Assembly: GCA_008080735.1 (NCBI GenBank)
Contig: SHMW01000021.1
Coordinates: forward strand, 1-54,674
Origin: Promethearchaeota archaeon
GTDB taxonomy: Archaea; Asgardarchaeota; Lokiarchaeia; Sigyniarchaeales; SOKP01
Direction of reading: 5' to 3'
Length of the DNA: 54,674 nt
Shown here in pieces: positions 11,278 through 23,485 of the stretch (its first letter is position 1; each line of letters begins with the position of its first letter). A program made the position numbers and the translations under genes. Under the pieces are notes generated by a model. It was given only the letters and a program-made list of their open reading frames with translations, had not been told where the DNA came from and made no database searches.

Positions 11278-12276
11278 ATGAAATTGATTTTTTCCCAATT
11301 AGATCCCAAACCAAATAAACCGATAGCTATTCTTTATTCTCTCCCAGACCAAAACATATCCGATGATATTCAACATCAACTTGATGTGATCTATGAAAAG
11401 TATCAGAATGAAAACGCTGATGATGAGCCTATTGCATATCATTCTGGTCCGTATCTCTCCTATATCTTTAAAGCTGAATCTGCATGGGATTCTGGAGTAA
11501 AAGAAACCTTTATGCTTACTTTATATTTTGAAGAGCATGAAAATACCCATTTCTTTAGTTCGGTTGTTCGGAAAACCATTTCAGATTTACAGAGTCTCCC
11601 TAACCTCACTAAAATAATCTCCGTGAATACACCGCATGCCGACAAGGAATCTTATGCTATTTTGGGGAAAGTAATAAAAATTCTCACAGAGGGGTATTTT
11701 GAAGCCTCAAAACTACATGCTACCTATAATTTGGGATTATCAGAAGTGCTTATCTTAGGAGATAAAGGAAGCGGGAAAACGTCAATTGTCGACTATCTTA
11801 TTCATGGAGATTTTATTCCTCAATCAAGTCCAACTCTCACTCCCCAAGTGTATCAACTAGTATATGATCAAGTGGATTTTCGGGTACTTGATATCTGCTG
11901 TGAAGAGCATTTACAAGAGATTTTTGAAGATCATCCAATCGAGAAAGGAAAACTACCTCAAGCAATTGTTTATGTAATAGATGCCTCAAAAAATGTGGAT
12001 GAGCTGGATCAATCAATGGAGGAATTTGATTATTGGATGAAGTTTCTCAGTGAAAAATACTCCAAGTCTTTGTTTCTTACAGTTCCTATACTAATATTAT
12101 TCAATAAAGTTGACCTAAATCCAGCATTCGATCTTGACTCATATAGTTCTCGATTTAGTCCAAATATATCTGGGTTACGCTTAAAATATGCGGCTAGCTC
12201 GGTGAAGAAAGGACTCGGATTGAATGATAATTTTTCATGGGTCATACAACAAGTCAAAGTAACCCAGAAACATTGA
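11278..12276 (+). CDS. Arf/Rab-like small GTPase fused to an N-terminal longin/uDENN-like domain
   Basis: G1 GDKGSGKT, G2 SPT, degenerate G3 DICC, VYVIDAS, G4 NKVD, G5 SSVK. About 150-aa N-terminal alpha/beta domain. Confidence 0.8.
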   Translation: MKLIFSQLDPKPNKPIAILYSLPDQNISDDIQHQLDVIYEKYQNENADDEPIAYHSGPYLSYIFKAESAWDSGVKETFMLTLYFEEHENTHFFSSVVRKTISDLQSLPNLTKIISVNTPHADKESYAILGKVIKILTEGYFEASKLHATYNLGLSEVLILGDKGSGKTSIVDYLIHGDFIPQSSPTLTPQVYQLVYDQVDFRVLDICCEEHLQEIFEDHPIEKGKLPQAIVYVIDASKNVDELDQSMEEFDYWMKFLSEKYSKSLFLTVPILILFNKVDLNPAFDLDSYSSRFSPNISGLRLKYAASSVKKGLGLNDNFSWVIQQVKVTQKH

Positions 12277-14797: not shown

Positions 14798-15415
14798 ATG
14801 TCTCAAGAAATAGTTGTGCCCGGAGCTTGCGGCGTTGCGATTAAATGCAAGGATGGAGTGGTCTTAGGAAACGATAGGCGCGCGATATGGGGATATACCG
14901 TAACTAACAAATCTACGAAGAAAGTCTTTAAACTGACCGAATACATCGGAATGGCAGCTTACGGTCTTATCGGGGATTATCAGATGCTCACAAAAATCCT
15001 TCATGCGCAAGCTAACTTATATAAGTTAGATACGCGTGAACGTATATCAACAAAAAGCCTTGCGAAGCTTCTATCAAATTATCTCTTCTCGCGAAAGATG
15101 GCCCCACTCTATACCAACCTCGTAGTTGCGGGTATGGATAAGGATGGCCCGAAGTTATTCACACTCGATGCCATTGGTTCCTTAATACCTGAAGATTACG
15201 GTACAACAGGAACGGGAATGCTTTTATCAATGGGAATTTTAGAAGCTGAATATAACCCAGATTTAACCGTCGCAGAGGGAGAAAAATTGGTTGAAAAGGT
15301 CATCAGATCTGCGATGAAGCGAGATGCGATGTCTGGCAACGGAATCGACATTCTCACAATAACCGAAGACGGCTCCGAAGAAAAGTTTATTGAAATAGAT
15401 GAATTAGGAGAATAA
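14798..15415 (+). CDS. psmB: 20S proteasome beta-type subunit, lacking catalytic Thr1
   Basis: KDGVVLGNDRR, KKVFKL, GLIGD, TLDAIGS, RDAMSGNGID. The N-terminus is VPG-ACGV in place of G-TTTV. Confidence 0.93.
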   Translation: MSQEIVVPGACGVAIKCKDGVVLGNDRRAIWGYTVTNKSTKKVFKLTEYIGMAAYGLIGDYQMLTKILHAQANLYKLDTRERISTKSLAKLLSNYLFSRKMAPLYTNLVVAGMDKDGPKLFTLDAIGSLIPEDYGTTGTGMLLSMGILEAEYNPDLTVAEGEKLVEKVIRSAMKRDAMSGNGIDILTITEDGSEEKFIEIDELGE

Positions 15416-15689
15416 TTTTTATCATTTCTTTTTCTCATACAGTTCTTTATTAGAAGCCTTATAGTATCAGATCCGTAATTTCTTCAGAATGAGAAATAAC
15501 GCATTTCATTGTTATTTTTTTTGCGGGTATTGTTGAAGTTTGGAATACTGCAAATCATAATGCTTCGAAGCTCCAAAAGGATTTAGAAGTAATTATTAAA
15601 CGGTTTGAAGACATTTAGAAATAAATTTGTTCCATAAAGATTTATTGATTTGTTTCATTTTCGTACTTAAACCGCAATTTCAGTGTGAA

Positions 15690-17753
15690 ATGGATTTGAA
15701 GTTAATAAACAATACGTTTGGCGAAAAAAGACAAGTAGCAGGTTTTTCTAAGGACGAGTTAGTGGAAATAAAAAGAAAGATTTCTGATTTTAAATCGGGC
15801 AAATTAACTCAAACAGAAGTTATGGAGTTACTTCAGAGAAAATTTCCAGAAGATCTATTGGAAGAGCATTCCAAATACATTGAGAATATTGAGAATTTTA
15901 TTAATACATATCTCAAGCAAGTCTCAAAGAGTCAAAATTTAGGTGAATTTAACTTTTTTTATCTTAAAAAAAAACTTTTAGAAGAAATAGATCTTATTTC
16001 TAATAACTTATTAAACCTTAAACTAAACTGCCAAAATTCCAAGAGATTCTTGAAAGACCATCATTATCTCAATGATTATATCTCAAGAATTAATCTGGTA
16101 TTTGAAAAAACGAAAGAATTACAGTCATCTTTACAGCCAATAGGTAGGCCTCCGCTTGATTTTGAAGATTTATCCCGTATTTGGTTTGACATGAATAAAC
16201 TGAAAAATTTTAAATTTAAAATGAAAAAGCCGATCGAGGATCAAATAATTTGGGAAGAAATATCAAATTTATACGATTACTTGACTAATAAAGGTGAAAA
16301 GGAAAAAAAGGGGGGAATTTTCAGCAAGAAAGAGTTAGAAATTATATTTTATTTTAAGATTTTGAATAACTATATTTCTAATTTACCTCAAAAAAATGCG
16401 GATTTTTACCTCGATTTGTTATTCCTCCTACATAAGAGTGACCTACTTAGTGTCCTTGAGGAGCAAGAATTTTCAAACATTCTTGAAAGAAAAGAAGCGA
16501 AAGATGAGATAAGAAGATATCTCCGCTCAATAATTAAGGAGGTAATTAGGGCCAACTTAGAGGAGTTCATTCAAGAGGTCTACAGATATGAGGAAAAGAC
16601 AGATTATGAAGGAGGAGATATTCAAAAAACTATTGAAGATCTCCTAGAGAAAAAAATTAAAATATTACTACCAAAATTCATCGATCTCTATTTTAATGGT
16701 TTAGAAAAACACTATCTATCAATCATTGCAAACTCAGAAGACTTCCACCAATTTGAGACTATTATTAATGAATATTCAAACAACATAGATGGAGTTTATG
16801 AAAGCATTGAAAATATCAAAGTTTATACGAATCATTACAAACCGTACTTAGATCCTTATGAAGAAATGCTTGAGTCTTTACACAAAATTTTTTCGAATCT
16901 ATTAGACAACATATACCGTCGAAAAGAAGAATTTATTTATCACCTTGAGGCAATACAACAGGAACGAATGAAGCAAGAGATAAGAACATATACATCAGAA
17001 AAAATCGAGGAACTAAATTCTCTCATTGAAAATTATCGTGATGAGGTTGCCGTATTATTAAAACAAAAGATGCCCCACCTTGAAAGTATTGAGGGAATTA
17101 TCAATACCTATAAGCATAAAATCAATAAAATAAAAGATGATGTTTACAGCAAGCTAAAAGAACAAGGACAAGAAGACTTGGATCAATATCAAATCATTAA
17201 AAATTGGGAAGAGAATTATAAACGCAGAAAAGAGCAAATTGGATTTTTGCTTTCGCAGTATTTAACAAATTTATATAAAGATTTTGAAGGTTTAATTGAA
17301 AAGGAAGAAGCTCTGTTCAACAGAATCAAAGATATATCTCAATATGGAGATGAACAAGATGAAGTACCATTAAATTATGCATTCTCTAGCTTTTTAGCAA
17401 ACAAGCTCACTGAAGATGAAATGCGGGAGCGTATGGTCGAATTAAAAGCCAAAATTAATAGCCTTAACCATCTGAAAGCTTTATACGAAGATGAATTGTC
17501 TCACCTAGAAGATACATTAAAAACAAAAGTGAAGATAAGAGAAGGGATTGCAACTTCTAATGTCCAGTGTGGAGTATGCAGAAAAGAGATCAATTTTGCT
17601 GATGATAAAATCATTAAATGTCCATTTTGTGATGCCGTGTATCATTATTTGTGTGTGGCCTTTTGGCTGTCAAAATATAATAGTTGTCCTTCGTGTCAGA
17701 ACGCATTTTTGGATCCTAATCAAAGTATTTATGAAACTCAACAAGAAGAATAA
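15690..17753 (+). CDS. Large helical/coiled-coil protein with C-terminal C4HC3 RING (putative E3 ligase)
   Basis: CGVC-x13-CPFC-x4-H-x2-C-VAFW-x6-CPSC. Probable start ATG 15690 (track start TTG 15627). Confidence 0.8.
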   Translation: MDLKLINNTFGEKRQVAGFSKDELVEIKRKISDFKSGKLTQTEVMELLQRKFPEDLLEEHSKYIENIENFINTYLKQVSKSQNLGEFNFFYLKKKLLEEIDLISNNLLNLKLNCQNSKRFLKDHHYLNDYISRINLVFEKTKELQSSLQPIGRPPLDFEDLSRIWFDMNKLKNFKFKMKKPIEDQIIWEEISNLYDYLTNKGEKEKKGGIFSKKELEIIFYFKILNNYISNLPQKNADFYLDLLFLLHKSDLLSVLEEQEFSNILERKEAKDEIRRYLRSIIKEVIRANLEEFIQEVYRYEEKTDYEGGDIQKTIEDLLEKKIKILLPKFIDLYFNGLEKHYLSIIANSEDFHQFETIINEYSNNIDGVYESIENIKVYTNHYKPYLDPYEEMLESLHKIFSNLLDNIYRRKEEFIYHLEAIQQERMKQEIRTYTSEKIEELNSLIENYRDEVAVLLKQKMPHLESIEGIINTYKHKINKIKDDVYSKLKEQGQEDLDQYQIIKNWEENYKRRKEQIGFLLSQYLTNLYKDFEGLIEKEEALFNRIKDISQYGDEQDEVPLNYAFSSFLANKLTEDEMRERMVELKAKINSLNHLKALYEDELSHLEDTLKTKVKIREGIATSNVQCGVCRKEINFADDKIIKCPFCDAVYHYLCVAFWLSKYNSCPSCQNAFLDPNQSIYETQQEE

Positions 17754-18109: not shown

Positions 18110-18964
18110 CTAACCAGGTCTCTTTGATTTAATCCTTGTTTTAGGAATATTCTTAAATTTTTCAATTTTCTTTTCTAATTCCTCTTTTTTCTCATTTAAT
18201 CGTTCTCTATCTTTTTCTAATTTCTCTCGCTCTCGTTTTATGGTGCTCTTTTCATCTTCAATTCTCTGTTTTTCACTCTTCATTCTATCAACATCATTAG
18301 AAAGCTTTTGTCTTTTTTCTTGAATATCACTCGCAATTTTGTCCCTTTTTCTTTCTAATCCACCGACATCATTTTTTAGTCTTTCCTTTTTATTTTCCAA
18401 ATCATCTACATCTCTTTGAAGATAATTCTTCTTATTCTCAAGCTTGGAGATATGATCTTTTAATTTTCTGAGATTTTCCTCCTCCTTTCGCTTTTTCTTT
18501 TCTAAATCACGCTTTTCATCTTCAATGTCATCCCGAATGTCTAATAATTCTTTCTTTTTACGTTTTAGATCATCTATCTCGTCGTTTATTTGATTATCTT
18601 TCCTTCGTAAGTTGTCTTTCGCTTTTTTTAATTTTTGTTTTTCATCTTCGATTTTCCTTTTTTGATTTCTAATATCATCTTCAACTTCTTTGATTCTTTC
18701 CTTTGCCTTTTTCTTCTCTTTCAAAAGGTCTCGAATATCTTTTTCGATAGATTTCCTCTTATCTTCAAGGTCCTCTATTGTTGTATTGTATTTCTGTATT
18801 CTCTTAATCACTTTTTCCCATTTTTTTCGTTCTTTTTTCAATTTTTTTCGTTCTTTTTTTAGCTTTTTTAGAAGTTTTTTACTTGGTCTAGCATCTTGAT
18901 CCTCGAGAGGAGTTTTTTCTCGTATGGTATATTTCGAAGGTTTTTTTTCTCGCATACATATCAC
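18110..18964 (-). CDS. Lys/Glu/Arg-rich long coiled-coil protein
   Basis: Near-continuous heptad pattern over about 240 aa; divergent from the Ubl operon. The start may be the second Met (MREKK). Confidence 0.75.
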   Translation of the reverse strand: MICMREKKPSKYTIREKTPLEDQDARPSKKLLKKLKKERKKLKKERKKWEKVIKRIQKYNTTIEDLEDKRKSIEKDIRDLLKEKKKAKERIKEVEDDIRNQKRKIEDEKQKLKKAKDNLRRKDNQINDEIDDLKRKKKELLDIRDDIEDEKRDLEKKKRKEEENLRKLKDHISKLENKKNYLQRDVDDLENKKERLKNDVGGLERKRDKIASDIQEKRQKLSNDVDRMKSEKQRIEDEKSTIKREREKLEKDRERLNEKKEELEKKIEKFKNIPKTRIKSKRPG

Positions 18965-19129: not shown

Positions 19130-19492
19130 ATGAGTTTTGATGAGTTTGATGATGAATTTGATGAAGAATTAGAAGAACCAACCGGTAAAACTCCATCTTC
19201 AGATATTAAATCCAAGACTCCGGTTATAAAAGGTCCAGGAGGAGGTAAGAAATTATCACTGTTTTTCACTTCTACAATTGGACCAGGAGAGAAGAAACAA
19301 AAATTAATTGTGGATGATGCGAATAATATAGGAGCGATTAAAGAAACAGTTGGAAATATTTTTGGATTAGACCCTACTGATTTTCACCTATCTTCCGGAG
19401 GAGTGACTATGGACGAGGCAAATCCTCTAAGTGAATACAATGTAGAGGATGGAGACGAAGTGCTTTTGATACCAGCGAGCACTGCTGGATAG
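19130..19492 (+). CDS. Ubiquitin-like modifier (beta-grasp) with acidic N-terminal extension and single C-terminal Gly
   Basis: IGAIKETVGNIFGLDP…FHLSSGGVTMDEANPLSEYNVEDGDEVLLIPASTAG*. GAGGT RBS at 19117; first gene before an E1. Confidence 0.88.
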   Translation: MSFDEFDDEFDEELEEPTGKTPSSDIKSKTPVIKGPGGGKKLSLFFTSTIGPGEKKQKLIVDDANNIGAIKETVGNIFGLDPTDFHLSSGGVTMDEANPLSEYNVEDGDEVLLIPASTAG

Positions 19493-19589
19493 GTTAAAAA
19501 GCGTTTATAGATCAAATATTAGTTAAACATCTATTTTTTTAAATTTTTATTATTATTAATATGAATCAAATACCCTTAAGTGAGATGAT

Positions 19590-20816
19590 GTGAAAGAAGA
19601 TTCAAATTTCTTTAGCGAAGAATTATCGGCAAATGAAAGAGATCTTTATGATAGGCAATTCAGATTAGAGGGGTGGTCTCAGCAGATTGTAAAAAATGCT
19701 ACAGTACTAATTGCGGGTATAGGAGGGCTGGGATGTGAAATTGCGAAGAATCTAGCCATGGTTGGAGTTGGACGGTTAGATTTGGTAGATATGGATATTA
19801 TTGAATATTCTAATTTGAATCGCCAAATATTATTTGTTGACGCTGAGATGGGAGAATCAAAGGCGATTGCCGCTGCCAAAAAGCTTAAAGATATAAATCC
19901 ATTTATCGAGATTAATGGATATAATACATCCCTAGAGCGTTTAGACCCAATTTTATATAAACAGGCGGATGTAATTGTAGGGGGCCTTGACTCGATGAAT
20001 GCTCGGTTAAATCTGAATGCTCAAGCAATTCGATTTGATAAGCCTTTCATTGATGGCGGTGTATCTGGATACCATGGGCATATATATACCATTTTTCCCT
20101 ACGAAAATGCCTGCTATGAATGTAATCCATTACCAACCTCAGAAATTGATGATATGGCAGCCTGTACTGTAGTGGGTATTCCGAGAAAAAGGATTCATTG
20201 TGTTTTTAAAGCAAATATGAGTTTTGAGGAAGAACATGAAAGAGGTCCAAATGTAAAAAATATTAAAGAGATTTCTTATATACAAGAGAAAGCTAATGAA
20301 TTAGCTGAGAAACATAATTTCCTTCCTTTATTTAATAAATCAGAAATCATCAAGATATTAGACCAACATGACCCTGGGATTATTACGATTAATGCGATTA
20401 TTTCCTCACTTCAATCCCATGAAGTTATAAAAGTCCTTCATTGGCTCAAGAATAACACAGCATTAGGAGAACCCGTAAAAAACTATGTGGTGTTTAATGC
20501 TATGACGATGAAGTTTTATCGTATTCAAAAACAGAGAAATTCCAATTGTATTCAATGCGGAAATAATGTGAGAAGGGAAGAAATAACAATAAACCCCACT
20601 GATGAATGTGAAAAAATAATAGATAAATTAAAACAGAAAGGATACCGTTTAGATCCCGATATGGAACCCATTTTAACCTTATTAGATTTTGACGATATTA
20701 AAATTGTTGATCTTGATGAAAGTAGTGAAGAAAATAAATTAAGAGATTTCGAACTCATAACTGCTGCTGGATTTCATAAGGGAGAAGTTTACGTAACTCT
20801 CCGAATTAAGGATTAA
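19590..20816 (+). CDS. Ubiquitin-like activating enzyme E1 (ThiF/UBA3-like)
   Basis: YDRQ, GIGGLGCE, D…IEYSNLNRQILF, SKA, Zn motifs CYEC and CIQC, catalytic-Cys region ACTVVGIPRKRIHC, and a C-terminal extension of UFD size. Confidence 0.93.
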   Translation: MKEDSNFFSEELSANERDLYDRQFRLEGWSQQIVKNATVLIAGIGGLGCEIAKNLAMVGVGRLDLVDMDIIEYSNLNRQILFVDAEMGESKAIAAAKKLKDINPFIEINGYNTSLERLDPILYKQADVIVGGLDSMNARLNLNAQAIRFDKPFIDGGVSGYHGHIYTIFPYENACYECNPLPTSEIDDMAACTVVGIPRKRIHCVFKANMSFEEEHERGPNVKNIKEISYIQEKANELAEKHNFLPLFNKSEIIKILDQHDPGIITINAIISSLQSHEVIKVLHWLKNNTALGEPVKNYVVFNAMTMKFYRIQKQRNSNCIQCGNNVRREEITINPTDECEKIIDKLKQKGYRLDPDMEPILTLLDFDDIKIVDLDESSEENKLRDFELITAAGFHKGEVYVTLRIKD

Positions 20817-21002
20817 AATTTTCTAAAAAACAATCTAACAATTAGACTTAAAAAAATCTAAGAAGTATATTATCCAAATTAAAAAATACATAAAATTCCG
20901 ATATGTTTTAAAGAATATCTCAATTTATAAAATAAACAATAAATTTTTAAACCCAATAAATCATTACATTTACAAAAATTAATCTAAGAGGGATTAAGAA
21001 AA

Positions 21003-21530
21003 TTGTCATCAAGGAGTAGAAGAGTTAGCCAAGATTTTGCATTGCTAAAAAAGATGAGAAAGAATGGTGATATTATTCAATTAAAACCATGGGACAAGAA
21101 AAAAAAGAGTATTGATCACCTGAAAATCACTATTCCAGGACCTAACGGGACAGCATATGACGGAGGATATTTCCGTTTGGAAGTAAAATTTCCTAATAAT
21201 TATCCAAAAGTTCCTCCATTCGTACGTATGCATACACCTATCTGGCATCCAAATTTTTGGCCGAAGCCCCACGAATATAAAGGTCAGCGGAATATCTGTT
21301 TAGCATTAATCGATCCAAACTATGTTGGTAAGAAGGGCGGATGGAGCCCATCAAAAACTATTAAAACGGTAATTCAAGCAATCAAGGCGATGCTAAACAC
21401 AAGAGGAAAATATGTCAATCCTACCGATGTTTTCAACAAGAAAGCAGCTATTGAAATGATGGAAAAGCCAAAAAAATTTGAAAAAAAAGTTCGATACCTT
21501 GTTAAAAAATATGCAAATGAAAAATGGTAG
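21003..21530 (+). CDS. Ubiquitin-conjugating enzyme E2 (UBC fold)
   Basis: GPNGTAYDGGYF, FPNNYPKVPP, IWHPN…NICL (catalytic Cys), GWSP. TTG start. Confidence 0.93.
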   Translation: MSSRSRRVSQDFALLKKMRKNGDIIQLKPWDKKKKSIDHLKITIPGPNGTAYDGGYFRLEVKFPNNYPKVPPFVRMHTPIWHPNFWPKPHEYKGQRNICLALIDPNYVGKKGGWSPSKTIKTVIQAIKAMLNTRGKYVNPTDVFNKKAAIEMMEKPKKFEKKVRYLVKKYANEKW

Positions 21531-21539
21531 GTAAATGGG

Positions 21540-22334
21540 ATGGAAAATGAAAATAACAGTCAGAAGGAATCTCTTAAGAATAATTTAAAAAGAGAGATTA
21601 AAGAGACGTTAAAATCAGAAATTATAAACGAGATTGTCTCAGAGCTAAAGGCAGAGGAAAGTACCCTAAAAAAAGAGTTAATAGAAATTTTAAATCAGAA
21701 GATCAACTCCGAAAATATTGAGCAATTCGCGCGAGAAGAGAAACAAAAAAAAAGACTTAAATCGGGAAAAGAGCCCGAGTGTTATATTAGTGTGAAAGCC
21801 ATATTGAAGATTAGCAGCCACGCATTAAAATATGCTAATGAAAATATACCTAAAGAAGAATGGGTAGAGGTAATAGGATTATTAGCGGGTAAAATAAACA
21901 AGAAAAATCAAAAACTATATATCGAAGACGCATATCCCATGGGACACGGTAATGCAGTATTTGCAGAAATTAAGGAATACAAAAACTTTGTAAAAGCATT
22001 CAAGGATATTAAGAGAAATGGTCTTTTTATCTGCGGATGGTATCATTCTCATCCCTCATACGGGGCATTTATGAGTGCAGAGGATTTGGGAACTCAAGCA
22101 CGATATCAAAAATTATGGGATAAATCAGTTGCGCTCGTAATCGATCCTTATCAAATCGATGGAAGCTCTTATGGGTTCAAAATATTCCGCTCTAATTTAC
22201 AGACCCAGAAGTGGTATTCTATTCCTTTTGAGATAACTGAGTCTTTGGGAGTTGGTGCCCTGCCAGAATTGATGGAATTCATTAGGCCTATTATTGATGG
22301 CCAAGCATTATTCTTGGAATATGATGAAGAATAG
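21540..22334 (+). CDS. JAB1/MPN+ (JAMM) metalloprotease, Rpn11/CSN5-like
   Basis: ISVKAILKISSHA, EVIGLL, GWYHSHPSYGAFMSAED (HxHx7Sx2D), ALVIDP. N-terminal coiled-coil extension. Confidence 0.93.
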   Translation: MENENNSQKESLKNNLKREIKETLKSEIINEIVSELKAEESTLKKELIEILNQKINSENIEQFAREEKQKKRLKSGKEPECYISVKAILKISSHALKYANENIPKEEWVEVIGLLAGKINKKNQKLYIEDAYPMGHGNAVFAEIKEYKNFVKAFKDIKRNGLFICGWYHSHPSYGAFMSAEDLGTQARYQKLWDKSVALVIDPYQIDGSSYGFKIFRSNLQTQKWYSIPFEITESLGVGALPELMEFIRPIIDGQALFLEYDEE

Positions 22335-22360
22335 TCCTAAAACGTATTAAGTCCAGGTGA

Positions 22361-23485
22361 ATGTTTATTAAAAAAAGATATATTATTCCACCTTCTATTA
22401 GTTTGATATTTGCTCTAATACACGGAATATTTATTGAACCTTCTCTAAATATATTTCTCTCATGGACTTTAGTGGGCCTATGGGTTGATTATGTTATTAA
22501 ATTTTTTGAAAAGATTAAGAACTATAGAGAATTTAATTCTCCTCATAATACTTCTTTTTTTGTAATTAGTGTGATTTTCATAGGACTGTTTTATCTTTAT
22601 TCGGGTTATTATACCCGTCTGTTTAATGAACTTTTAATTGATTTGGATCTGGTCTATGTATTGCTAACTCCTTGGATAACTATTTTTTCCTTTCCCTTCT
22701 TACTCTATGGAATATATTCTCTTTTTGCGTGTATTAGGAAGTATGAGGTAGTATATATCTATAAAGAGCGGTCTGTGAATGCGCGCAAGTTTTCTATTGG
22801 TTTCTCGATATTTATCCTCATTCAAAATATGGTCTTCCTAATTCTAATCTTGGAAGAAGAGCCCATTCTAACATTTAAACCAATTTTCCAATATCCCGAT
22901 TTGATTTTCTTAATTATTACAATTTTTTTGGTAATCCTTCCCATATACGGGGTTTTGAAAAAAGAACCGAGTATTTCAGATATAACACCTGAAGCCATTG
23001 CGAGTAGAAGAGATCAAGTGAGAAGCATTGAATCCGCAGCGTCAAGAAGTTCACAATCTAGACCCTCTCGTCCAACTCAGAGACATATCGAACCAAGAAG
23101 CAACACTACTTCACAAAGGACTAAAAGAAAACCACAAACTAAAAAGAAAACAAAAAGTAAACGGAAGCTGTCAAAAGATGAAATTATCAAGAGAATAAGA
23201 AGTATGAAGCCTAAAGCGGGTATACTTAATCTTGAGGATTTTAAATGCATTTTTTGTTTCAATCTGCCACATTATCCCCAAGATAAAGGAAGGGGTATTG
23301 TTCTCTGTCCGAATTGTAAACATCCCGCTCATGCAGATGAATTTAGAGATTGGCAAAGACATTCTAATCTATGTTCTCGTTGTGATGCGGAAATTCCTTA
23401 CTCCTTTCGAACAAATCCCAAAATTATCCATGTAAAGTCCTATGTAAAAGTAATCGAATATTTTAAGAAAAAGGAAAATCTATAA
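22361..23485 (+). CDS. Polytopic (~6 TM) membrane protein with C-terminal RING-like finger (putative membrane E3)
   Basis: Six hydrophobic segments in the first ~200 aa, a Ser/Arg/Lys-rich linker, then CIFC-x16-CPNC-x4-H-x2-E-FRDW-x6-CSRC. Confidence 0.78.
   Translation: MFIKKRYIIPPSISLIFALIHGIFIEPSLNIFLSWTLVGLWVDYVIKFFEKIKNYREFNSPHNTSFFVISVIFIGLFYLYSGYYTRLFNELLIDLDLVYVLLTPWITIFSFPFLLYGIYSLFACIRKYEVVYIYKERSVNARKFSIGFSIFILIQNMVFLILILEEEPILTFKPIFQYPDLIFLIITIFLVILPIYGVLKKEPSISDITPEAIASRRDQVRSIESAASRSSQSRPSRPTQRHIEPRSNTTSQRTKRKPQTKKKTKSKRKLSKDEIIKRIRSMKPKAGILNLEDFKCIFCFNLPHYPQDKGRGIVLCPNCKHPAHADEFRDWQRHSNLCSRCDAEIPYSFRTNPKIIHVKSYVKVIEYFKKKENL

Follow-up and report, generated by a model that had tools for sequence, protein, structure and literature searches.

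A candidate ubiquitin-type conjugation cassette with an Ala-Gly modifier and a putative membrane-embedded RING ligase in Asgard archaea

Eukaryotic ubiquitin signaling is thought to be of Asgard archaeal descent, and, to our knowledge, only the compact operon that combines a Gly-Gly-ending (diGly) ubiquitin with a small RING protein has been studied so far. A contig of 54,674 nucleotides from a Promethearchaeota archaeon (SHMW01000021.1, assembly GCA_008080735.1; the whole stretch is referred to as the window) carries five adjacent genes, which encode a ubiquitin-fold modifier, an activating enzyme (E1), a conjugating enzyme (E2), a JAMM metalloprotease and a membrane RING protein that is a putative ligase (E3), and raises the question of whether Asgard archaea possess ubiquitin-type pathways besides this operon. 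We conclude, with a probability of about 0.7, that these genes constitute a working ubiquitin-like conjugation cascade, here termed type a, a paralogue of the canonical diGly-ubiquitin operon of archaea, termed type c. Type a is best regarded as a variant of the known archaeal E1/E2/RING system, distinguished by its Ala-Gly modifier, by a RING variant that is embedded in the membrane and by a separate lineage of E1 and E2 proteins.

The modifier and the enzymes of the type a cassette

The list of open reading frames (ORFs) places the five genes on the same strand at positions 19130-23485 of the window, in the order modifier, E1, E2, JAMM and membrane RING protein, with intergenic gaps of 97, 186, 9 and 26 base pairs (bp) (Table 1). 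The initial annotation had described a five-gene cassette of this kind with intact catalytic motifs in the E1, E2 and JAMM proteins; the ORF list, the Pfam matches and the sequence motifs agree with the first part of this description, and alignments and a residue-by-residue check agree with the second. In predicted fold and in catalytic residues, the five proteins conform to their respective families. No NCBIfam family covers the modifier, the E2 or the membrane RING protein, and an Rfam scan of the window between 15 and 25 kilobases (kb) gave no match. The conservation of the cluster across Asgard genomes, which the initial annotation had proposed to examine, was analyzed in 20 wider stretches fetched around the modifier gene: the complete gene order is kept in 16 of them, in at least six Asgard families (f1, f3, f7, f13, f16, and f28), so that the arrangement is not due to chance. 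Across Asgard classes, the five genes have stayed together as one set.

The modifier consists of an acidic, disordered N-terminal tail (residues 1-40) and a beta-grasp core (residues 41-115). In its AlphaFold2 model, which was based on 47 relatives, the tail of about 40 residues is likewise disordered and the core has a predicted local distance difference test (pLDDT) score of about 89. The best solved folds are those of the Caldiarchaeum ubiquitin (6fno/6fj7, E 3e-7, TM-score normalized to the target 0.76-0.83), followed by ISG15, ubiquitin, and NEDD8. The top 50 fold matches do not include UFM1, and the Ufm1 family of Pfam (PF03671) gave no hit in the genome with an E-value of 0.1 or lower. 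The modifier is therefore assigned to the ubiquitin type and not to the UFM1 type. In public databases it is labeled "hypothetical" or "ubiquitin-like domain-containing protein".

The C-terminus of the modifier reads ...LLIPASTAG and is followed by the stop codon. We surveyed 178 distinct modifier relatives from the fetched loci, about 134 of which are free-standing. The identity of the modifier among relatives is 45-86%. About 100 of the 178 stop exactly at ...IP[ASVH]S[TIV]AG, and the end S-[TIV]-A-G is present in all but one of the free-standing proteins, the exception having S-R-A-G. About 35 of the free-standing relatives extend beyond the Gly residue by 1-7 variable residues (I, K, YF, ITM, KYFV, and others). 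Since the conserved sequence stops at the Gly residue and only then gives way to a variable tail, the terminal Gly is presumably the processed, conjugated end. Thus, the single-Gly ending pointed out in the initial annotation is real and nearly invariant, whereas the lack of a propeptide, also claimed there, holds for the modifier of this genome but not for the tailed relatives. About 40 of the 178 relatives are membrane-anchored proteins of 260 amino acids (aa), in which the C-terminal ubiquitin-like domain ends with ...LIPSRKEKN and has no terminal Gly; ORFs of this kind (about 260 aa) are convergent with a modifier copy in the loci L016, L017, L022, L024, and others. In addition, many genomes have 3-5 copies of the modifier, and in one genome a modifier domain that ends with ...IPSSRAG forms a fusion protein with a HerA-like ATPase (L051:11075-12814, minus strand).

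The E1 protein contains the motifs G43-x-G-G-x-G, N76-R-Q, and D134, and has the ThiF adenylation fold that it shares with MoeB and ThiF. Its best solved match is UBA3 (2e-36, residues 33-349, that is 317 residues including the nucleotide-binding motifs), with a score of 129 bits compared to 65 bits for UBA5. In this alignment, Cys192 coincides with the catalytic Cys residue of UBA3, and both CxxC pairs of zinc cysteines (175/178/320/323) align with those of UBA3. The proposed resemblance to UBA3 thus extends through the catalytic-Cys region; as a link between the two proteins it is a matter of pairwise scores, because our phylogenetic trees held no eukaryotic sequences. At the C-terminus, where UBA3 has its E2-binding domain, the E1 has a domain of about 60 aa and of unknown fold.

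The E2 protein has the His-Pro-Asn (HPN) motif at residues 82-84 and the catalytic residue Cys99; its best solved match is Schizosaccharomyces pombe Ubc15 (3e-17), and UBE2F is among the better matches. Two loop insertions flank the catalytic Cys on both sides and are shared only with the E2 proteins of another paralogous set, type b, described below. The JAMM protease is most similar to the solved Caldiarchaeum Rpn11 homologue 6fjv (8e-15), to which its intact catalytic residues Glu110 and H169-x-H-x7-S-x2-D182 (HSHPx7SxxD) align, and it carries a charged helical N-terminal extension of about 80 aa. The Caldiarchaeum Rpn11 homologue both processes ubiquitin and removes it (PMC6043591, PMC5654768).

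Table 1. Genes of the type a cassette, their neighbors in the window, and related genes on other contigs (C118, C37) of the same genome. Sizes are in amino acids (aa).
Feature	Position	Strand	Size and evidence
Ubiquitin-fold modifier	19130-19492	+	120 aa; Pfam ubiquitin family 23.3 bits, slightly below the cut-off of 25.4 bits
E1 activating enzyme	19590-20816	+	408 aa; Pfam ThiF 196 bits
E2 conjugating enzyme	21003-21530	+	175 aa, TTG start; Pfam UQ_con 95 bits
Rpn11-like JAMM metalloprotease	21540-22334	+	264 aa; Pfam JAB 52 bits
Membrane RING protein, putative E3	22361-23485	+	374 aa; AlphaFold2 model, RING/U-box fold matches
Coiled-coil protein, divergently transcribed	18110-18964	-	284 aa; K-T-P-type motifs near both ends
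Large helical protein, C-terminal C4HC3 RING	15627-17753	+	708 aa; Pfam zf-RING_2 24.6 bits, below cut-off
Proteasome subunit gene	14798-15415	+	Pfam Proteasome 171 bits; directly upstream of the large RING gene
Arf/Ras-like small GTPase	11278-12276	+	Pfam Arf 58 bits; extended at the N-terminus by about 150 aa
Second E2	C118:303-755	+	40% identical; 5-kb contig
Second E1	C118:3105-4706	-	533 aa, larger
Free-standing ubiquitin-like protein	C37:16834-17085	-	83 aa, ends with QAGG

The membrane RING protein

In an AlphaFold2 model with a mean pLDDT of 84, the product of the last gene of the cassette comprises six long helices, predicted to be membrane helices (about residues 9-199), a basic linker that is disordered and rich in Lys and Arg (about 200-270), and a compact C-terminal domain (about 272-371); the RING-variant domain is assigned to about residues 287-373. 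The RING-variant domain is predicted to be cytoplasmic, because the N-terminus is basic, the number of helices is even, and the linker is basic. The conserved residues of the membrane domain include N59-S-P-x-N63, W41, W105, and P112. Pfam provides weak zinc-ribbon and RING hints (E 0.01-0.4), and the predicted structure of the C-terminal domain matches RING/U-box folds over 70-75 residues with VIA-align Z-scores of 6.2-7.4 (3lrq, Ring1b, CHIP, TRIM21/25, Rad18, and UHRF1); the weak Foldseek matches include the solved RING domain of HRD1. A BLASTP comparison connects the domain with the small RING protein of a Helarchaeal canonical cluster (E 3e-8), and all ligand positions align between the two proteins, the sixth ligand being His in the small RING protein and Glu327 in the membrane protein. 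The class of small RING proteins has been demonstrated biochemically to act as E3 (PMC5654768; bioRxiv 10.1101/2023.07.25.550441). In agreement with the initial annotation, the putative E3 is predicted to be an integral membrane protein; its C-terminal domain is homologous to the archaeal small RING E3.

The zinc ligands follow the pattern C-x2-C-x16-C-x2-C-x4-H-x2-E-x10-C-x2-C, the conservation of which was checked in 34 and in 50 relatives of the membrane RING protein. Residues C296, C299, C316, C319, H324, C338, and C341 are invariant, as is W331, which lies three residues after the sixth ligand, as in the small RING proteins, and aligns with their Trp. His321 is not considered to be a zinc ligand because it is usually replaced by Tyr in the relatives.

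Several observations speak against a working cascade with a membrane ligase. The sixth ligand is either Glu327 or Asp326, each of which is kept in at least 90% of the relatives and neither in all of them, with Ala327 found in one relative and Asn326 in another; since this ligand is not strictly invariant, site 1 is only a putative zinc site and the protein only a putative E3. The membrane domain has no match to a known fold in Foldseek searches of the PDB, in a wide VIA-align search, or in the ESM Atlas, where generic helical bundles were the only matches. The penultimate residue of the modifier is Ala, and we know of no UBA1- or UBA3-type E1 documented as accepting an Ala-Gly end. In a tree of the JAMM proteins, type a is not resolved from type c, which was represented by one sequence. 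The 186-bp gap upstream of the E2 gene is AT-rich and may divide the cassette into two transcripts.

The same variability of the sixth ligand would fit a different role of the membrane protein, namely that of a receptor, an anchor, or a dedicated substrate that docks the E2 or the modifier, the true E3 being encoded elsewhere (e.g., by the gene of the large RING protein in Table 1) or missing altogether. This explanation is also consistent with the Pfam RING models, which stay below significance, with the existence of a second RING protein that is linked to the cassette in some genera, and with the finding that the Caldiarchaeum E1 and E2 modify themselves without any E3 (PMC5654768). However, seven of the eight ligands are invariant together with Trp331, the counterpart of which is found in the small RING E3 proteins; the domain is homologous to a proven class of E3 RING domains; and the membrane RING gene is the only RING gene that is always part of the cassette, whereas the large RING gene is missing from most stretches. 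We therefore regard a non-ligase role as unlikely and retain the membrane RING protein as the putative E3 of the type a cascade.

Paralogous E1/E2 sets and comparison with known systems

Among 400 Asgard genomes sampled, the modifier was identified in 195 and the membrane RING protein in 193 (about 48% each), and the two proteins occur in the same families. In family f1, to which the window belongs, they are encoded by 119 and 117 of 134 genomes, respectively, compared with 25 and 26 of 31 genomes in family f13, 19 each of 22 in f16, and both of the two genomes in f7; in most other families the two proteins are absent or nearly so. Within family f1, only one of the five genomes of genus g2 (G145-G149) has the modifier and none has the membrane RING protein, and two of its genomes, scored as 100% complete, have neither, a pattern that looks like lineage-specific loss of the whole cassette. 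Among the carriers are the cultured Candidatus Lokiarchaeum ossiferum B-35, in which the modifier is NEF87_002996, and a closed genome that clusters with genomes labeled Hodarchaeales.

Phylogenetic trees of Asgard sequences, which hold neither Caldiarchaeum nor eukaryotic proteins, resolve the E1 proteins into three separate clades (support 100/99 for type a, 84/90 for type b, and 99/100 for type c), and the E2 proteins likewise into types a, b, and c, each with 98% support in the Shimodaira-Hasegawa-like approximate likelihood ratio test (SH-aLRT). The type a E1 and E2 proteins thus fall outside the canonical clade, as represented by the Asgard type c sequences. In four genomes (G067, G128, G033, and G307), a canonical type c cluster occurs alongside the type a cassette. 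In the type c clusters, a GG-ending ubiquitin with or without a propeptide (the ubiquitins of G067 and G128 end with TGG+FPN and EGG) is encoded together with an E1 (about 335 aa), an E2 (about 155 aa), and a small RING protein (87-127 aa); one genome has a JAMM protein of 140 aa in the cluster, and two genomes have genes similar to UEV/E2 variants nearby. The type c E2 has the eukaryote-like spacing HPN-x7-Cys and lacks the two loop insertions. In alignments with solved structures, only the type a E1 matches UBA3 through the Cys region, whereas the type c E1 matches UBA3 in the adenylation domain only and Escherichia coli ThiF over residues 8-256 of 335, and the best alignment of the type b E1 is to the adenylation domain of UBA1. 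The own clades of E1 and E2 and the coexistence with the canonical cluster support the distinct parallel pathway that the initial annotation had envisaged.

The genome to which the window belongs has a second E2 and a second, larger E1 on another contig, as well as a free-standing ubiquitin-like protein with the end QAGG, which occurs in four related genomes with 76-93% identity (Table 1). No canonical type c E2 was found in this genome. Related genomes share a conserved gene pair for a ThiF-type protein of about 297 aa and an adjoining weak E2-like protein of about 200 aa (G189:C1:2667096-2668422 and G170:C9:221015-222382), which possibly represents a fourth activation system. A further ThiF-type E1 homologue of the window's own genome (C32:38576-39565) lies about 400 bp from the end of its contig.

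The closest characterized relatives of type a are the Caldiarchaeum operon, comprising a pro-ubiquitin, an E1-like, an E2-like, a small RING, and an Rpn11-like JAMM protein, which was reconstituted (PMC5654768, PMC6043591), and its Helarchaeal counterpart with a diGly ubiquitin and a small RING protein, which was also reconstituted (bioRxiv 10.1101/2023.07.25.550441). Type a resembles these systems in that five functional parts are encoded together, in its modifier fold, JAMM protease, and RING domain, which are closest or homologous to theirs, and in the short C-terminal propeptide that some of its relatives have in common with the Caldiarchaeum and Helarchaeal ubiquitins. In contrast, the type a modifier ends with S-T-A-G instead of the canonical Gly-Gly and has an acidic tail of about 40 residues with K-T-P motifs; a small soluble RING protein, another canonical feature, is not part of the cassette, its RING domain being fused to a six-helix membrane domain with Glu or Asp instead of His as the sixth ligand; and the E1 has a UBA3-like Cys region that is not alignable in the canonical E1.

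It could therefore be asked whether the cassette is simply the known Caldiarchaeum/Helarchaeia-type operon in a Lokiarchaeal form, in which the Ala-Gly end and the membrane anchor are minor quirks of the lineage. The identical set of five functional parts, the similarity of the modifier, JAMM, and RING proteins to their canonical counterparts, and the genome of the window itself, in which type a could stand in for the type c E2 that was not found, are in line with this explanation. The separate E1 (99-100%) and E2 (98%) clades, the four genomes that contain both cassettes, the shorter type c E1 with its adenylation-only match to UBA3, the E2 loop insertions that type c lacks, and the Ala-Gly end, which is fixed across classes, argue against it and make it very unlikely; they favor type a as a paralogous system.

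Among eukaryotic pathways, the NEDD8 pathway (UBA3 as the catalytic subunit, UBC12/UBE2F, and the RBX RING) is similar to type a in its E1, for which UBA3 is the best match, and in UBE2F being one of the better E2 matches; moreover, when residues are counted back from the terminal Gly, the modifier sequence appears to have Ala at the position of Ala72 in NEDD8 and of Arg72 in ubiquitin. The type a cassette differs from this pathway in having no diGly end, no separate gene for an APPBP1-like partner, no known cullin, and a membrane protein as its putative E3. The initial annotation had also drawn analogies with endoplasmic-reticulum-associated degradation (ERAD) and with UFMylation. Hrd1, gp78, and Doa10/MARCH have the same layout of several membrane helices and a cytoplasmic RING domain; however, no likeness between their membrane domains and that of type a was detected in sequence or fold, and the RING domain of the latter is of the type C4-H-(D/E)-C2, not RING-H2 or RING-CH. 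The likeness to Hrd1 that these searches showed is one of layout, and an ERAD-like role would be hypothetical. The UFM1 system (UFM1, UBA5, UFC1, UFL1, and UfSP) also has a modifier with a single-Gly end and acts at membranes in eukaryotes, but the modifier, E1, and E2 of type a are of the ubiquitin/NEDD8 kind, with an HPN-type E2 of the UBC family and an E1 that scores higher against UBA3 than against UBA5, its protease is a JAMM protein and not UfSP, and no UFL1-like gene is present in the cassette; the analogy with UFMylation was not upheld.

A non-ubiquitin nature of the cassette, be it UFM1-like, a sulfur-carrier system (SAMP/MoaD/ThiS), or an antiviral E1-E2-JAB system such as the cyclic oligonucleotide-based antiphage signaling system (CBASS, with Cap2/Cap3) or Bil, is highly improbable: UFM1 and ATG8/12 do end in a single Gly, Ufm1 homologues are reported from nine Asgard clades (PMC12962969), the E1 adenylation fold is common to MoeB and ThiF, and generic CBASS E1-E2 models match the adenylation domain, but the Pfam search described above gave no Ufm1 match and the top 50 fold matches no UFM1, a separate E2, a RING protein, and a catalytic-Cys region are foreign to sulfur-carrier systems, the curated NCBIfam models of MoeB, ThiF, and UbaA reach 113-141 bits compared with cut-offs of 266-450, the PADLOC matches are confined to the adenylation domain at 65 bits or less, and the stable synteny across Asgard classes, together with the identity among modifiers, is unlike a defense island. 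Asgard Ufm1 homologues are a subject of Köstlbacher et al. (2026), in the text of which it is not evident which proteins are meant; the type a modifier does not resemble UFM1.

The system had been put forward as undescribed. In our literature search, neither the Ala-Gly end nor the membrane RING protein nor the paralogy turned up in any paper, and in this respect the claim stands; on the other hand, database labels already exist, and a Lokiarchaeotal "Ub region" was recognized through generic InterPro domains by Hatano et al. (2022; PMC9192718), who did not distinguish the paralogues, the C-terminus, or the ligase. In the literature on L. ossiferum, we found no record of expression or conjugates for the cassette.

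Proposed mechanism, implications and gene neighborhood

Inferred from what is known of the respective families, the type a cascade would operate as follows. The modifier would be made either ready to use, as in the genome of the window with its Ala-Gly end, or with a few extra residues at its end, to be cut off by the Rpn11-like JAMM protease. The E1 would adenylate Gly120, hold the modifier as a thioester on Cys192, and hand it over to Cys99 of the E2. The six-helix protein would tether its RING-variant domain at the cytoplasmic face of the membrane via the basic linker of roughly 70 residues, and the RING domain would bind the charged E2 through a surface containing the invariant Trp331, promoting discharge onto lysines at or near the membrane, from which the JAMM protease would also take the tag off again. 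The candidate substrates are membrane proteins, the coiled-coil protein encoded next to the cassette, and the tail of the modifier itself, which would lead to chain building; the last two share the K-T-P motif. Tentatively, and with the odds well against it in this full form, we propose a third Asgard ubiquitin-type system located at the membrane, in which the six-helix RING ligase puts the Ala-Gly modifier on membrane-proximal proteins, possibly on K-T-P lysines, and feeds the proteasome encoded nearby.

Asgard genomes thus already hold several paralogous E1/E2 sets, one of them with a non-diGly modifier of its own. The putative RING ligase of type a is built into the membrane, a layout previously tied to quality control at eukaryotic organelles and the plasma membrane, and a separate, membrane-based branch of ubiquitin-type tagging probably predates the eukaryotes. 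If the membrane system is real, it would be either a prokaryotic predecessor of the ubiquitylation of membrane proteins in eukaryotes or a separate invention of the same process. Hodarchaeales are the proposed closest relatives of eukaryotes, and the presence of the cassette in genomes labeled as such and in the cultured L. ossiferum makes the question open to experiment. The last Lys or Arg residue of the modifier is Lys71, and residues 72-120 correspond to positions 19343-19489 of the window; since Lys71 is the last tryptic site, conjugates are expected to retain a remnant of 49 residues on their substrates, to which routine Lys-GlyGly searches are blind. Standard diGly proteomics would therefore miss Ala-Gly tagging at the membrane, if it occurs. 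A published ubiquitylation search that covered histones presumably relied on the usual diGly remnant (bioRxiv 10.64898/2026.07.02.735847).

In 17 of the 20 wider stretches, the modifier gene has the divergently transcribed coiled-coil gene as its neighbor. The motif K[TI]P occurs 11.4 times per 1000 aa in 91 homologues of the coiled-coil protein, compared to 0.52 per 1000 genome-wide, and is concentrated in the first and last tenth of these proteins; relatives start, for example, with M-x-E-KTP-x-KY-x-I-x-E-KTP and end with IK-SKTP (homologues in L005-L133). In the tail of the modifier, KTP motifs are found at residues 20-22 and 29-31 (window positions 19187-19222), and K29-T-P is kept in at least 90% of the relatives. 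The K-T-P motif could be an acceptor-lysine, docking, or phosphorylation site.

Upstream of the cassette, the window encodes the large RING protein, a possible second E3, with the same ligand spacing as in the membrane RING protein. Its full-length homologues are found beside the cassette in a subset of genera and are absent from most stretches. Of the 11 fetched stretches with the large RING gene, 9 have the proteasome and large RING genes as a pair beside the cassette, although several of these are duplicate fetches of one genomic place; the presence of this pair in some genera hints at a link to degradation. Further upstream, the window contains the gene of an Arf/Ras-like GTPase, a typical eukaryote-like gene of Asgard archaea that is unrelated to the cassette.

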